A stretch of 44,876 bases of DNA from the sequence record PQ850604.1. The stretch is one strand, 5' to 3'. The DNA comes from Escherichia phage Haito_Bas83. Shown here piece after piece: positions 27,553 through 37,247 of this stretch (position 1 is the first letter of the stretch; each line of letters begins with the position of its first letter). The notes under the pieces are model-generated. The model did not search any database, was not told the DNA's origin, and worked only from the letters and a program-made list of their open reading frames with translations. Both the position numbers and the translations under genes were made by a program.

Positions 27553-28244
27553 TTTAAATTTTCCTCATTGACTGCTATTGCGAAGCCGCGCGGAGTGAGC
27601 GACCGGATTAATTTGGTGCGGGCAGATTTGCCACCGAGGCGACTATACTGCTTCGAGTACCCTTTTTCAACGAATACCGGCTTTTTCTCCGGCATACGAA
27701 AGCCATTGCCGGTCCATAAACAGGTCAGCTTTGGATATGAATCGCGGTCGTTGATGTATTCCGGGAACAACGGATGTACGTCATCCTCCGGCAGATAGCC
27801 GCCATACTCCCACGGATCAAACGAGTGGTCTGGCTTGCGCCACTGGGTGGATAGCACACTGCGCGGATTCTCAATCATATATGGCACTTCAAAGAAGTCA
27901 CCCAGGTAAGCGGCAATCTTCGCGGTGCGCACTGCCTTAAGCTGAAAGGCGGGGTCTTTCGCACGCTTGCACGGGAAAGCTGTCGCACCGCTCACCGCCA
28001 GATCCGTACACGGCGGAAACGCGTAGATAATATCCGGCGTGCCGAAATCGCCATTCATCGCGCGGTCCACGAAGTCCAGATCGATAAACTCGTTACGATA
28101 GCGGATACCGCGACCATAAATACGGTAGTCAAGGTAAGACCCGTGATCGGCTTCCGAGTAGTTGAAACAGTAGCATTTATGCCCCATCTCGGCAGCGCGC
28201 TCTATCATCAAGCCGCTGCCGTCAAATAATGACCAGATAATCAC
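27549..28244 (-). CDS. compact C5-cytosine methyltransferase-like protein
   Basis: Motif I-like LFDGSG, PC motif FPPCTD and ENV-like ENPRS in the right order; only 231 aa, so target-recognition regions are short or absent. Confidence 0.45.
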   Translation of the reverse strand: MIIWSLFDGSGLMIERAAEMGHKCYCFNYSEADHGSYLDYRIYGRGIRYRNEFIDLDFVDRAMNGDFGTPDIIYAFPPCTDLAVSGATAFPCKRAKDPAFQLKAVRTAKIAAYLGDFFEVPYMIENPRSVLSTQWRKPDHSFDPWEYGGYLPEDDVHPLFPEYINDRDSYPKLTCLWTGNGFRMPEKKPVFVEKGYSKQYSRLGGKSARTKLIRSLTPRGFAIAVNEENLK

Positions 28245-36080: not shown

Positions 36081-36128
36081 TGTCTCGTCCTCTAAAAATA
36101 GGCCCGCAGATTAGCGGGCCGGATAATA

Positions 36129-36650
36129 TTAATCTTCTAATTCGAAATACGTTTCTACGATTTCTTTTAAATCTTTATGGAAGTCTTCGACGTCGTCATC
36201 TTCCAGCTTGGCGACGGATTTAATTTCGAACGCTTCCAGCAGATCATCAAATTCGTCGTTTGCGTCGTCGTCATCGCCGCCTGCGATAATCGCGGCATAC
36301 TGCTTGATTTCGTCGCGCATCTCTTTCAGAGGATCGGCTTCTTTCTTGCCTTTACCTTTCGCCGGTGCTTTTTTAGACTTCGCAGGTGCTTCTTCCTCGT
36401 CCGCGTCGTCGTCTTCTTCTTCTACGGCTTCTTTCTTAGCCTTGCCCTTTGCAGGCGCTTTTTTGGACTTCGCCGGTGCTTCATCTTCAGCGTCGTCATC
36501 TTCGACTACTTCTTCTTTTGCCTTGCTCTTAGCCGGGGCTTTCTTCGCTTCCTGTTTACCAACGGCAGCGCCAGCAGTTTCGTAATGCTTAGCGATGGTT
36601 TCCAGTGCTACTACGCCGCGAGTGATCAGGTTTACGATTTGCTCAAACAT
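36129..36650 (-). CDS. lysine-rich repeat protein with acidic C-terminus (first gene of leftward early operon)
   Basis: RBS GGAGAT; three copies of (D/E)EAPAKSKKAPAKGK(A/G)KKE repeats; C-terminal DDDDANDEFDDLLEAF. Confidence 0.5.
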   Translation of the reverse strand: MFEQIVNLITRGVVALETIAKHYETAGAAVGKQEAKKAPAKSKAKEEVVEDDDAEDEAPAKSKKAPAKGKAKKEAVEEEDDDADEEEAPAKSKKAPAKGKGKKEADPLKEMRDEIKQYAAIIAGGDDDDANDEFDDLLEAFEIKSVAKLEDDDVEDFHKDLKEIVETYFELED

Positions 36651-36710
36651 GGTATATCTCCGATTGGTTAATTTAAGTGTTCGGTGCGGTATGCCCCGTC
36701 AACGAGGTGA

Positions 36711-36740
36711 ATAATAGGTTGGTTGCAGGTGGGGTGTCAA
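36711..36740 (-). promoter_or_regulatory. putative leftward early promoter
   Basis: Minus strand reads GTTGACACCCC (-35 TTGACA), 18-bp spacer containing TGCAACCAAC, then TATTAT. Confidence 0.4.
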
Positions 36741-36751
36741 CAACTAATTTC

Positions 36752-36810
36752 AAAAAAAAAGCGCCGAAGCAAAATGCGACGGCGCTAACCAATAAGAGAC
36801 AATGAGACGG
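36752..36810 (-). ncRNA. candidate small RNA or attenuator (promoter-like TTGAAA-N17-AATAAT plus terminator)
   Basis: Minus strand: TTGAAA (36844-36839), -10-like at 36817-36822, then ~55 nt ending in hairpin GCGCCG-13 nt loop-CGGCGC plus nine T. Confidence 0.25.
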
Positions 36811-36857
36811 GGATTATTATTACACGCGTGCGCGCCCGTTTCAATATACAAAAGGAG

Positions 36858-36886
36858 TTGACACCCCGCAATTTTAGGTGTAGTTT
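36858..36886 (+). promoter_or_regulatory. putative rightward early promoter
   Basis: GTTGACACCCC (-35 TTGACA), 17-bp spacer, TAGTTT; an inverted copy of the same 11-mer lies at 36731-36741. Confidence 0.4.
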
Positions 36887-36917
36887 CGTTGGTCATTAAC
36901 CAATAGGAGACAGAACA

Positions 36918-37247
36918 ATGCATATCAACGACGCAATCGAAATGTTAACTAAGACCGTTAGTTGTGAGACAAGCCGGTCCTGGGCTTATACCGATGCCGT
37001 TGGTGCGGCGTTATTTGAAATCGAACGCCTGCGCAGTGTCGAAAAAGAATTGCGCGCCAAGCTGGAATTACTCAACGGTACGGCAGCAAGCAAGCTGCAA
37101 AAACACAATGAAGAAATGGAAGAATACAAAAAGCAGGTTATCCGTTTACGCGACGAGGGCAAGTCCTGGGCGATGATTGCCGAGTTGACCGGAATTAATC
37201 AGAGCACCGTGCGCTCCTGGGTACGCAATAATAAAACTTCTAAGTAA
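36918..37247 (+). CDS. HTH DNA-binding protein (putative transcriptional regulator)
   Basis: 109 aa; helix-rich with C-terminal HTH-like KSWAMIAELTGINQSTVRSW; first gene of the rightward operon. Confidence 0.5.
   Translation: MHINDAIEMLTKTVSCETSRSWAYTDAVGAALFEIERLRSVEKELRAKLELLNGTAASKLQKHNEEMEEYKKQVIRLRDEGKSWAMIAELTGINQSTVRSWVRNNKTSK

Follow-up and report, generated by a model that had tools for sequence, protein, structure and literature searches.

Base-pairing small RNAs (sRNAs) of enterobacteria are usually built from an unstructured 5' end, a terminator hairpin, and a long U tail. Hfq-dependent examples such as the prophage-encoded DicF are 50-60 nt long and follow the same plan with a single-stranded seed, and they pair to SD regions. 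The CI RNA of satellite phage P4, which confers immunity, has a central sequence that complements two separate copies in its target transcripts—it is processed from a longer transcript and acts, in a lysogenic context, by premature termination of transcription rather than by a block of translation. Dhillonviruses are common E. coli phages that are represented in the BASEL collection and in therapy-oriented work; to our knowledge, nothing has been described about how their early genes are controlled, and a literature search found no paper on Dhillonvirus transcription, promoters, or sRNAs. In the c4 RNA of P1/P7, which blocks translation, short stretches complement copies that are repeated around a ribosome-binding site (PMC12197685). 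This RNA is processed from the operon transcript that it regulates, and it governs antirepressor synthesis and immunity in a temperate phage (PMC12197685). P22 sar and lambda OOP, each ~70 nt with a dedicated promoter and an intrinsic terminator, reduce the output of a regulatory gene that belongs to the early control region (PMC12197685).

Here, we analyze a 267-bp intergenic region in the window, by which we mean the whole 44,876-nt stretch of Escherichia phage Haito_Bas83 (PQ850604.1), a Dhillonvirus (HK578-like E. coli siphophage) with 97.7% identity to Bas85. Drawing on sequence features, a conservation survey of the region in 36 genomes, covariation of structure, and complementarity statistics, we tentatively propose that the center of this divergent early control region may be a Dhillonvirus-specific sRNA gene, whose product is a predicted repressor of both flanking leaders.

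Layout of the divergent control region

As an earlier sequence-only reading of this DNA had noted, the first genes of the leftward and rightward operons begin at divergent start codons 267 bp apart, at 36650 (minus) and 36918 (plus); a check against the sequence also recovered every motif listed in that account, each in its place. Across the 36 genomes, the interval holds three predicted sigma-70 promoters—PL leftward, PR rightward, and Ps leftward between both. The outer two and the genes that they face are laid out as follows:

36711..36740, minus: PL, predicted leftward early promoter, with TTGACA (36740..36735), an 18-nt spacer, and TATTAT (36716..36711); 11/12 match
36741..36760, minus: A/T-rich tract TTTTTTTTT-GAAATTAGTTG, comprising the predicted terminator U tail and positions -36 to -55 of PL
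36858..36886, plus: PR, predicted rightward early promoter, with TTGACA (36858-36863), a 17-nt spacer, and TAGTTT (36881-36886)
36889..36903, no strand: palindrome TTGGT-CATTA-ACCAA, a possible operator, spanning the PR start region
36129..36650, minus: first leftward gene, 173 aa; product Lys/Ala-rich and acidic; PHROG 3127, function unknown; candidate target
36918..37247, plus: first rightward gene, 109 aa; product coiled-coil-like at the N terminus with a C-terminal HTH; candidate target and candidate DNA-binding regulator

The two divergent promoters with TTGACA -35 elements that had been claimed are supported. In relatives, the PL -10 reads TATTAT, TAATAT, or TATCAT, with TAnnAT always retained, and the A/T-rich tract upstream of it (diversity 0.039) presumably serves as a PL UP element, judging from the published consensus. 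PL and Ps account for two of the only three sites genome-wide, on both strands, that match sigma-70 at 10/12 or better. PR was read from the sequence, its -10 matching at 3/6 and falling under the scanner threshold; its -35 element stands back to back with that of Ps, 13 bp away.

The same account had described the outer -35 elements as embedded in a mirrored 11-mer. The two sequences, GGGGTGTCAAC (36731-36741) and GTTGACACCCC (36857-36867), do form an 11-nt, 100% inverted repeat, but not a conserved operator: the 11/11 identity occurs in 2/36 genomes, Haito_Bas83 and Bas85 only, and the core common to the genus is TTGAC(A/T)CC. A repeat search of the 267-bp region found no repeated operator dyads over PL and PR, the -35 region being their sole shared repeat, and the suggested resemblance to the lambda PL/PR switch holds for the layout and fails for the operators. 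The further remark that no repressor gene is evident overlooks the HTH protein encoded by the first rightward gene, which stands at the Cro/CI-like position of related Guernseyvirinae and is syntenic with the Cro/CI-like genes of Kagunavirus St162 and Serratia phage Otaku. This 109-aa protein matches Pfam HTH_23, HTH_28, and Sigma70_r4_2 as well as PHROG 9366, being only generically HTH/sigma region 4-like, and domain and sequence searches found no homology to Cro or CI.

On the other side, the first leftward gene is annotated in WF5505 and bob and is followed by an intrinsic terminator (36120..36101). A 136-bp insertion in the left 5'UTR of relatives was considered as a structured RNA and found no support (z = +0.5). 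Spurious small ORFs have been drawn across the intergenic region in several records, one of them on the wrong strand.

A predicted small RNA between the outer promoters

The minus strand between PL and PR carries the following elements:

36816..36844, minus: Ps, predicted small-RNA promoter, TTGAAA-N17-AATAAT with an extended -10 TG
36838..36822, minus: Ps spacer CGGGCGCGCACGCGTGT, 17 nt, GC-rich, its sequence unique in the genome
36810..36815, minus: discriminator between the Ps -10 and +1, variable in length and sequence
36752..36809, minus: predicted small RNA of ~57 nt, starting at +1 (C36809 or G36808) and running through the U tail, with Ps upstream and the terminator downstream
36760..36786, minus: predicted terminator hairpin, its outer stem of 7 bp (AGCGCCG/CGGCGCU) joined through a 2x2 internal loop to an inner stem of 3 bp that is capped by UUU
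36786..36808, minus: predicted single-stranded 5' seed GUCUCAUUGUCUCUUAUUGGUUA, the reverse complement of a third leader copy, TAACCAATAAGAGACAATGAGAC (plus)

Here, too, the components that had been described are present: TTGAAA (36844..36839) and AATAAT (36821..36816) spaced by 17 nt, a 10/12 match with a TG upstream; a GC-rich spacer, ACACGCGTGCGCGCCCG, with the palindrome CACGCGTG inside it; and the hairpin AGCGCCG..CGGCGCT (36760-36786) followed by a minus-strand T run (plus-strand A9, 36752-36760). Ps is conserved in 36/36 genomes with a diversity of 0.011, spacer included, and promoter function alone is not enough to explain the total invariance of the spacer. The spacer alternates pyrimidine and purine, and all six substitutions seen are transitions, which is weakly suggestive; the idea that it is a Z-DNA-prone outlier was rejected, the 15-nt alternating tract being not unusual and equally long runs occurring in shuffled genomes.

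Conservation changes abruptly downstream of the promoter. The discriminator has a diversity of 0.32, and relatives have 5-9 nt between AATAAT and the invariant CGTCTC; because diversity is 0.005 in the next 23 nt, invariance begins at the predicted +1. These 23 nt form the seed, which is 96% invariant, as compared with diversities of ~0.25 (0.22-0.28) for third and 0.04-0.085 for first and second codon positions. In the folded RNA, the 5' 26 nt are predicted to be unpaired, and the seed is unpaired in both the minimum-energy and the centroid folds.

The hairpin folds at -16.2 kcal/mol (z = -2.7). Across relatives, all cells of the hairpin are paired, with two compensatory pairs, in one clade, and a change from A-U to G.U keeps the pairing only in the minus-strand RNA. 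The T run after the stem, found on the minus strand only, is 9 nt long in the window and 8-14 nt long across the 35 related sequences that were extracted. A GC-rich stem-loop directly followed by a U tract predicts an intrinsic terminator, and the annotators of WF5505 marked the same hairpin as a terminator; a simple terminator scan did not list it because the outer arms lie farther apart than the loop length that the scan allows.

With Ps and the hairpin, the predicted RNA has a promoter and a terminator to itself; the right operon is encoded on the other strand, and the terminator and PL stand between the RNA and the left operon. An ORF comparison and a promoter scan found neither a conserved ORF opposite the predicted RNA nor a plus-strand promoter match upstream, and a small protein from the plus-strand ATG at 36802 was rejected, with relatives showing two different frames and several lengths. 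An Rfam search with the window and phage bob returned no family (best 17-22 bits, versus thresholds of 43-79). The rarity of the sigma-70 sites, the clustering of the leader box TAACCAAT, and the near-invariant block in 36 related genomes are features beyond chance. From the invariant promoter and RNA body, the variable discriminator, and the compensatory changes in the stem, we consider it probable that a discrete RNA is made from the Ps unit; where the sequence-only reading had offered an sRNA or an attenuator, the signature of a short terminated transcript is supported and the attenuator is not.

Distribution of the module

Scans of 5,426 E. coli genomes, of the PLSDB plasmids, and of a set with one genome per bacterial species did not find the module; 17-mer matches outside phages, in the host, plasmid, and bacterial sets, were at the level of chance and without flanking context. 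A host or plasmid origin was rejected, no homologue being found in those genome and plasmid sets. Our searches confined the HTH protein and the intergenic DNA to Dhillonvirus, and a metagenome scan added 12 more Dhillonvirus copies and no distant ones. In representatives of the nearest genera that share this gene order, the intergenic regions are without the module—Kagunavirus St162 (an interval of 157 bp; by reading and scan) and Serratia phage Otaku (by reading).

Predicted pairing with both leaders

The two ribosome-binding leaders are as follows:

36651..36675, minus: left leader, with the box TAACCAAT at 36663-36670, SD GGAGA at 36657-36661, and the start codon at 36650..36648
36896..36917, plus: right leader, with the box TAACCAAT at 36897-36904, SD AGGAGA at 36905-36910, and ATG at 36918

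Their near-identity (TTAACCAATCGGAGA, minus, 36657-36671; TTAACCAATAGGAGA, plus, 36896-36910) had been correctly pointed out, and what was missed is that the leader box is present once more, midway through the region and read in the reverse transcriptional direction. The 44.9 kb contain just three copies of TAACCAAT, all inside the intergenic region; the central copy matches the right one over a 16-mer (94% identity) and the left one over a 14-mer (86%). Because this third copy has the opposite sense, the predicted RNA is antisense to the ribosome-binding leaders of both first genes, and the complementarity of its predicted 5' part to both of them is newly noticed here.

With the right leader, the seed is predicted to form a contiguous 16-bp helix (16/16 with one G.U) of -23.1 kcal/mol, which ranks 1/68 among translation-initiation regions and is matched by 0/2000 shuffles. 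The left-leader duplex pairs as 8+7 around a mismatch and reaches -17.2 kcal/mol (41-nt leader), an energy matched by 0.45% of shuffles; taken as a 45-nt initiation region, the left leader gives -17.9 kcal/mol and ranks 4/68. Net cofold gains are -18.8 (right) and -14.6 kcal/mol (left), and the SD is covered in both duplexes. Many initiation regions attain moderate scores because GUCUC in the seed complements any GGAGAC-type SD. In a genome-wide duplex scan, several unrelated sites, long and G.U-rich, reached similar energies; such a scan is not discriminating alone, and we therefore limited the test to real initiation regions and shuffles.

Among 23 relatives, both leaders retain predicted duplexes of ~-12.6 to -23 kcal/mol, the left leader having a diversity of 0.073 (18 genomes). 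Two genomes have a different first rightward gene, and its leader is identical over at least 10 nt to a different part of the central copy (AGACAATGAG). In the Ioannina clade, a 1-nt seed deletion leaves the left duplex weaker, at -12.7 kcal/mol, and no other change makes up for it. Covariation between seed and targets is unobtainable because the seed never varies.

Alternative explanations

The alternative that survives best, though we rate it as unlikely, places the conserved function in the DNA: TAACCAAT and TTGGT would be sites for a regulator, most plausibly the Cro-like 109-aa HTH protein, which would shut PR, PL, and Ps, and conservation of the center would reflect protein binding. This protein is the product of the first rightward gene, in the Cro position of related phages, and the 267 bp hold five TTGGT/ACCAA pentamers where 0.57 are expected, a density unmatched elsewhere in the genome. 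Two of the copies are additional to the boxes, in the PL spacer and at the PR start, where an RNA explanation is inapplicable. The PL-spacer copy and the palindrome TTGGT-N5-ACCAA at the PR start are invariant in relatives with the HTH gene, as are TTGACACC and GGTGTAGTTT of PR, and the palindrome is gone from the two genomes in which an alternative first gene replaces the HTH gene. The likeness of the three box copies could itself stem from duplication plus constraint at the DNA level. Protein binding does not, however, account for where the boxes and the invariance fall: the leader boxes are fixed relative to the SD and start codon and not relative to the promoters, the left box lying ~136 bp farther from PL in most relatives; an 8-bp box cannot account for 23 invariant nt that start exactly at the predicted +1; and the covariation in the terminator is left unexplained. 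Regulator sites and an sRNA are compatible, and both could operate at once.

We are more doubtful of a real sRNA whose main targets are host mRNAs, or which acts as a sponge for a host sRNA, with the match to the phage leaders as a by-product of leader duplication. The 5'-most part of the seed (GUCUCAUUG) is invariant, yet unpaired with the common leader types, which speaks for targets elsewhere, as does the observation that the few recently characterized phage sRNAs often act on host genes (PMC12197685). Against this, 5,426 E. coli genomes contain no near-perfect complementary site (a scan to which imperfect targets are invisible), and three boxes clustered beside the RNA gene point to targets nearby.

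It is improbable that the hairpin and T tract are an insulating terminator and a PL UP element only, with Ps weak or cryptic and no functional RNA. The T tract does lie at ~-47 to -55 of PL, followed by AAA, in an UP-element-like manner, and the terminator ends 12 bp before the PL -35; such an arrangement does not explain why Ps is almost invariant, nor why the 23-nt stretch from +1 to the hairpin is, a stretch more conserved than first and second codon positions.

We also give little weight to the conserved center being part of a replication origin, with an A tract, a GC-rich palindrome, and GAGAC repeats, in which Ps would provide transcriptional activation or a primer RNA. The cumulative GC-skew minimum falls at ~36-38 kb, the region lies between the replication-gene operon and the primase-helicase gene, and an origin would give a role to the invariant GC-rich Ps spacer, which is otherwise unexplained. 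Against an origin, GC skew also tracks the reversal of transcription there, the syntenic Kagunavirus region is without such a module, and the G.U-compatible change in the hairpin favors structure at the RNA level.

Least of all do we expect an attenuator or antitermination-controlled leader, like lambda PR'-6S-tR', at which a phage factor would permit read-through into the leftward replication operon: a constitutive-looking promoter followed by a strong predicted terminator in the direction of that operon would suit it, but the fold shows no antiterminator structure competing for the stem (the 5' 26 nt being unpaired, there is no alternative antiterminator pairing), relatives share no conserved leader peptide or small ORF, the Bas85 record has no Q- or N-like gene annotated, and a near-consensus PL directly downstream of the terminator makes read-through unnecessary.

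Proposed mechanism and significance

If the center of the region is an sRNA gene directed at both leaders, host sigma-70 RNA polymerase would initiate from Ps at about 36809/36808 (minus) and terminate in the hairpin and U tract (36786-36752); in the ~57-nt product, 23 unstructured nt at the 5' end would be followed by the terminator hairpin and the long U tail. We give somewhat less than even odds to repression of the flanking leaders being the main job of this RNA. The 5' end of this RNA would be the reverse complement of the leader box and SD (TAACCAAT-N-RGAGA) that precede the first genes of both operons and, because it mirrors both leaders, may switch off their translation. Pairing with the leaders would block 30S binding and may trigger decay, such that synthesis of the HTH protein and the Lys/Ala-rich protein would fall as the RNA accumulates; downstream genes with their own ribosome-binding sites would stay translated. 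The U tract probably doubles as the PL UP element, and the terminator would shield PL from Ps transcription.

It is a long shot that this virulent phage runs its early switch via RNA in place of a repressor, from one RNA gene set back to back with PR and head to tail with PL, with the output of Ps reporting the activity of PL and PR in a feedback loop. Ps sits where divergent transcription piles up negative supercoils, and its output could therefore report on both promoters; this supercoiling-sensing component is pure conjecture.

Should the sRNA-gene reading be true, a universally conserved regulatory RNA would lie at the heart of the only divergent control region of the genus. Few sRNAs are known from strictly lytic coliphages, and this one would join them as an unusually compact example, in which a duplicated leader places the operons on both sides under a single RNA. 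The same reading would correct the annotation of a region in which several records carry spurious small ORFs.

Comparison with known systems

The locus combines the features that mark the sRNA class: a predicted noncoding unit of ~57 nt, a conserved single-stranded seed, and above-chance complementarity to initiation regions. Its setting resembles lambda PL/PR-OL/OR in having divergent early promoters and, as the first rightward gene, a small HTH regulator (here a candidate); unlike the lambda switch, it has no repeated operators and no CI gene, and a predicted RNA gene stands between the promoters. DicF-type sRNAs are matched in length, single-stranded seed, hairpin, U tail, and predicted SD pairing. 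There is, however, no sequence or Rfam relationship to them, and the predicted targets adjoin the RNA gene in the phage's own control region.

Among phage-encoded antisense RNAs, sar and OOP likewise have a dedicated promoter and an intrinsic terminator (here predicted from sequence) and regulate a gene of the early control region. In contrast to these cis-antisense RNAs, which are made from the strand facing their target gene, nothing conserved lies opposite the predicted RNA, which places it outside the cis-antisense class. Its complementarity to the leaders is only partial. The satellite phage P4 CI RNA offers the parallel of one RNA serving two repeated target boxes, whereas the predicted RNA would be a transcription unit of its own and is proposed to block translation. 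It also differs from c4 and CI as immunity RNAs, as the near-identical Bas85 genome has no integrase or repressor annotated, a finding at odds with temperate immunity. With P1/P7 c4 (immI), finally, it shares the arrangement of a short phage RNA not encoded opposite its target and of three repeated boxes, one of them antisense in the RNA gene; unlike c4, the predicted RNA would be made from its own promoter and terminator, between two divergent operons, and would act on both.

Layout of the divergent control region

The window holds all or nearly all of the genome of a Dhillonvirus (an HK578-like E. coli siphophage), and its sole divergence point is a 267-bp gap (36651-36917) with which the cumulative GC-skew minimum coincides. 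Leftward runs an operon of ~12 kb with replication and recombination genes, headed by a gene for a 173-aa Lys/Ala-rich acidic protein (36129..36650, minus); rightward, genes for a 109-aa HTH protein (36918..37247, plus), a primase-helicase, small proteins and lysis functions precede structural genes that extend across the record ends. The 173-aa protein (36132-36650, minus) is built from KKAPAK(S/G)K repeats with Asp/Glu runs in between; this composition recalls histone H1-like or DNA-mimic proteins, and Pfam and NCBIfam give no informative match. Immediately 3' of its gene lies an intrinsic terminator (GGCCCGC-loop-GCGGGCC plus TATTTTT; 36101-36120, minus), so that the gene and its promoter look like a terminated unit; transcription of the replication genes further on would then depend on read-through or a further promoter. 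Public annotations of 36129-36917 disagree among records: that of phage RuthEpting_Bas85, which is 97.7% identical to the window across the region, has the Lys/Ala-rich gene in the wrong orientation and, between the genes, two additional tiny ORFs on the plus strand, that of Ioannina extends the left gene over the entire control region, that of CHD5UKE2 calls a 47-aa ORF over the small RNA region, and the HTH protein goes under the names transposase, resolvase or 'recombination nuclease inhibitor gamma'.

Promoters and terminator

Three promoters are predicted within the gap, one leftward (PL), one rightward (PR), and a third (Ps) between them:

36740..36711, minus: PL, TTGACA-N18-TATTAT, 11/12 consensus matches
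36844..36816, minus: Ps, TTGAAA-N17-AATAAT with an upstream TG, 10/12 matches plus TG
36858-36886, plus: PR, TTGACA-N17-TAGTTT, perfect -35 and weak -10

PL and Ps are two of the three sites in the whole genome, both strands included, with at least 10/12 sigma-70 matches; the one further strong match lies at 27670 (minus strand). Ps and PR stand back to back, their -35 hexamers 13 bp apart, and the -35 of PL begins 12 bp past the end of the Ps terminator. The T tract of that terminator and GAAATTAG span about -36 to -55 of PL, which, going by the published consensus, would suit an UP element in both location and base composition. The PL -10 reads TATTAT, TAATAT or TATCAT among relatives, always keeping TAnnAT, the -10 positions that matter for sigma-70.

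Both the minus-strand promoter match and its GC-rich palindromic spacer had been picked out in the sequence-only reading and are present, with the upstream TG in addition; the 17-nt spacer is unique in the genome, and the 15-nt alternating pyrimidine-purine run within it is statistically not unusual there. The same reading described a mirrored 11-mer around the -35 elements of PL and PR. We gathered the region from 36 genomes (GenBank phages, contigs from IMG/VR and from metagenomes, and the window itself) and found that the inverted repeat (GGGGTGTCAAC / GTTGACACCCC) exists but is perfect in only two of them, the genus-wide core being TTGAC(A/T)CC, i.e. the -35 hexamer plus CC.

Likewise present is the reported hairpin, AGCGCCG..CGGCGCT, with a run of nine T behind it on the minus strand. 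Its predicted fold (-16.2 kcal/mol, z = -2.7; 0 shuffles equally stable) has stems of 7 and 3 bp separated by an internal loop; a simple terminator scan omitted the hairpin because its outer arms lie further apart than the scan's loop limit; the annotation of phage WF5505 marks the same hairpin as a minus-strand terminator. Among relatives the T tract varies from 8 to 14 T, never fewer than 8, and the hairpin changes in its internal loop, with stems constant except in the Ioannina clade. There, AGCGCCG/CGGCGCT has become ATCCCCG/CGGGGAT (two compensatory pairs), and an inner-stem A-U has become G.U, able to pair in the minus-strand RNA only; as this is a single lineage, these changes represent few events.

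Conservation of the predicted RNA

Nucleotide diversity in an 18-genome alignment of the control region and flanking genes
Third codon positions, flanking genes: 0.22-0.28
First and second codon positions: 0.04-0.085
36786-36809, predicted +1 to hairpin (23-24 nt): 0.005, 96% invariant
Ps with its entire spacer: 0.011
Hairpin: 0.044
T tract and putative UP region: 0.039
36810-36815, discriminator (Ps -10 to +1): 0.32

The discriminator also varies in length (5-9 nt from AATAAT to the invariant CGTCTC); with this stretch variable in both respects and the next 23-24 nt fixed, invariance begins at the predicted transcription start. A functional RNA transcribed from a genuine promoter should show such a pattern; a weakness of this reading is that it leaves the complete invariance of the Ps spacer unaccounted for. 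The only length changes seen within the fixed stretch are a 1-nt deletion in the Ioannina clade and, in the relative Opt212, a 5-nt duplication, GAGACAAGACAATGAGAC, inside the otherwise invariant sequence (about 795-812 in Opt212, corresponding to 36796-36808 of the window). Elsewhere in the region, the leftward 5'UTR of most Dhillonviruses is longer by a ~136-bp segment lying downstream of PL and ahead of the left leader (2185-2320 in phage bob; insertion point near window 36676). The window, Bas85, WF5505, YD-2008.s, Envy and Ioannina do not have this segment, whose fold is unremarkable (z = +0.5) and for which Rfam gives no match.

Complementarity to both leaders

The two similar leaders noted earlier, TTAACCAAT(C/A)GGAGA, are indeed present, and a third copy of their shared box had been missed: the plus strand of 36786-36808, TAACCAATAAGAGACAATGAGAC, contains the box, a Shine-Dalgarno (SD)-like sequence and ATG. 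This central copy matches the right leader at 15/16 positions and the left at 12/14, and all three occurrences of TAACCAAT in 44.9 kb fall inside this region. We rejected the central copy as a gene start, the ORF from its ATG having two frames and several lengths among relatives. Because Ps transcribes the opposite strand, the predicted RNA (36752..36809, minus) carries the reverse complement, 5'-GUCUCAUUGUCUCUUAUUGGUUA, in its 5' part, or seed (36786..36808), which the predicted fold leaves unpaired. We propose that host RNA polymerase would start at Ps to give a terminated RNA of ~57 nt, whose seed would base-pair in vivo at the box and SD ahead of each first gene and keep ribosomes from binding, making the regulation negative in sign. 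In any transcript reading through from Ps, anti-leader and left leader would lie in cis, and the first gene should then also stay translationally silent.

With the right leader, the seed is predicted to form a contiguous 16-bp helix over box and SD (-23.1 kcal/mol), the best among 68 genome initiation regions (background -12.1 ± 3.7) and reached by 0/2000 dinucleotide shuffles of the leader. The predicted left duplex, 8+7 bp flanking one mismatch, has -17.2 kcal/mol in the shuffle test (41-nt leader), where 0.45% of shuffles equal it, and -17.9 in the ranking (45-nt initiation region), where it stands fourth of 68; net cofolding gains are -18.8 (right) and -14.6 kcal/mol (left). Across 23 relatives both leaders retain duplexes of about -12.6 to -23 kcal/mol despite differing right-leader sequence, and in the Ioannina clade the seed deletion lowers left duplex strength to -12.7 kcal/mol. 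The pairing background is high, since GUCUC in the seed is complementary to any GGAGAC-type SD, and unrelated sites reach similar energies in a genome-wide duplex scan; as the seed never varies, seed-target covariation is unavailable. The left leader also contains GGAGATATACCATG (36648-36661, minus), which is the same 14-mer as the ribosome-binding site of T7 gene 10 and pET vectors, and AUUAAC, upstream in both leaders, resembles the T7 'epsilon' translational enhancer, so the leader box may also be a translation enhancer.

In two relatives, CHD5UKE2 (840-1369) and a metagenome contig, the first rightward gene is a different one; it encodes a 149-aa protein, whose C-terminal HTH shares 47% identity with the HTH of the 109-aa protein, and comes with a better PR -10 (TAGTAT). 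Its leader is without the TAACCAAT box and shares an identity of at least 10 nt (AGACAATGAG, across the start codon) with a different part of the central copy; the Opt212 duplication produces the same 13-mer. This match, suggestive only, may account for the fixation of all 23 nt in a recombining population.

Overall, the sequence-only observation is confirmed, each listed element lying where that reading had placed it, and its interpretation partly supported; our literature search found no paper on Dhillonvirus transcription. We think it likely that a discrete RNA is made, and put forward repression of the flanking leaders as its main role more tentatively, at somewhat under even chances.

Other modes of control

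Control may have an additional layer at the DNA level, plausibly through the 109-aa HTH protein, whose place is taken by a Cro/CI-like protein in Kagunavirus St162 and Serratia phage Otaku. Five pentamers lie in the 267 bp against 0.57 expected, the densest such cluster in the genome:

36664, 36719, 36788, 36889, 36899: TTGGT/ACCAA, possible operator boxes

Two of these are beyond the reach of RNA pairing and point to such a DNA-level layer: one is in the PL spacer, and the other makes a palindrome, TTGGT-CATTA-ACCAA, spanning the PR start. A lambda-like PL/PR switch is not supported; no repeated operators of the lambda kind were found in the region. An attenuator, also suggested for the hairpin, is unlikely: neither an antiterminator alternative nor a conserved leader peptide was found, and immediately downstream lies a promoter close to consensus.

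Distribution and comparison with known systems

Guernseyvirinae share the gene order DUF2800 nuclease leftward and HTH then primase-helicase rightward (St162 1737-1895; Otaku 1797-1997), with a Cro/CI-like first rightward gene and a shorter divergent region in St162 and Otaku. The RNA module is absent from the syntenic region of St162 (157 bp, read and scanned) and, by reading alone, from that of Otaku; it also has no counterpart in Rfam or in the E. coli genomes, plasmids and bacterial genomes searched, and thus appears confined to Dhillonvirus in these collections. The element is probably a new member of the phage-encoded base-pairing regulatory RNAs. Its build (5' seed, A/U-rich stretch, terminator hairpin, U tail of at least 8) matches that of enterobacterial Hfq-type small RNAs. 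By logic, its closest counterparts are P1/P7 c4 RNA and P4 CI RNA, the latter complementary to repeated boxes in leader transcripts. The repeated boxes to which c4 can pair lie near ribosome-binding sites (PMC12197685). However, c4 and CI are processed out of the regulated transcript and have an immunity role in temperate elements. P22 sar and lambda OOP resemble the predicted RNA in size, dedicated promoter and terminator, but are cis-antisense, which the predicted RNA is not (PMC12197685). The placement of the predicted RNA gene is unusual, with action predicted on both divergent operons.
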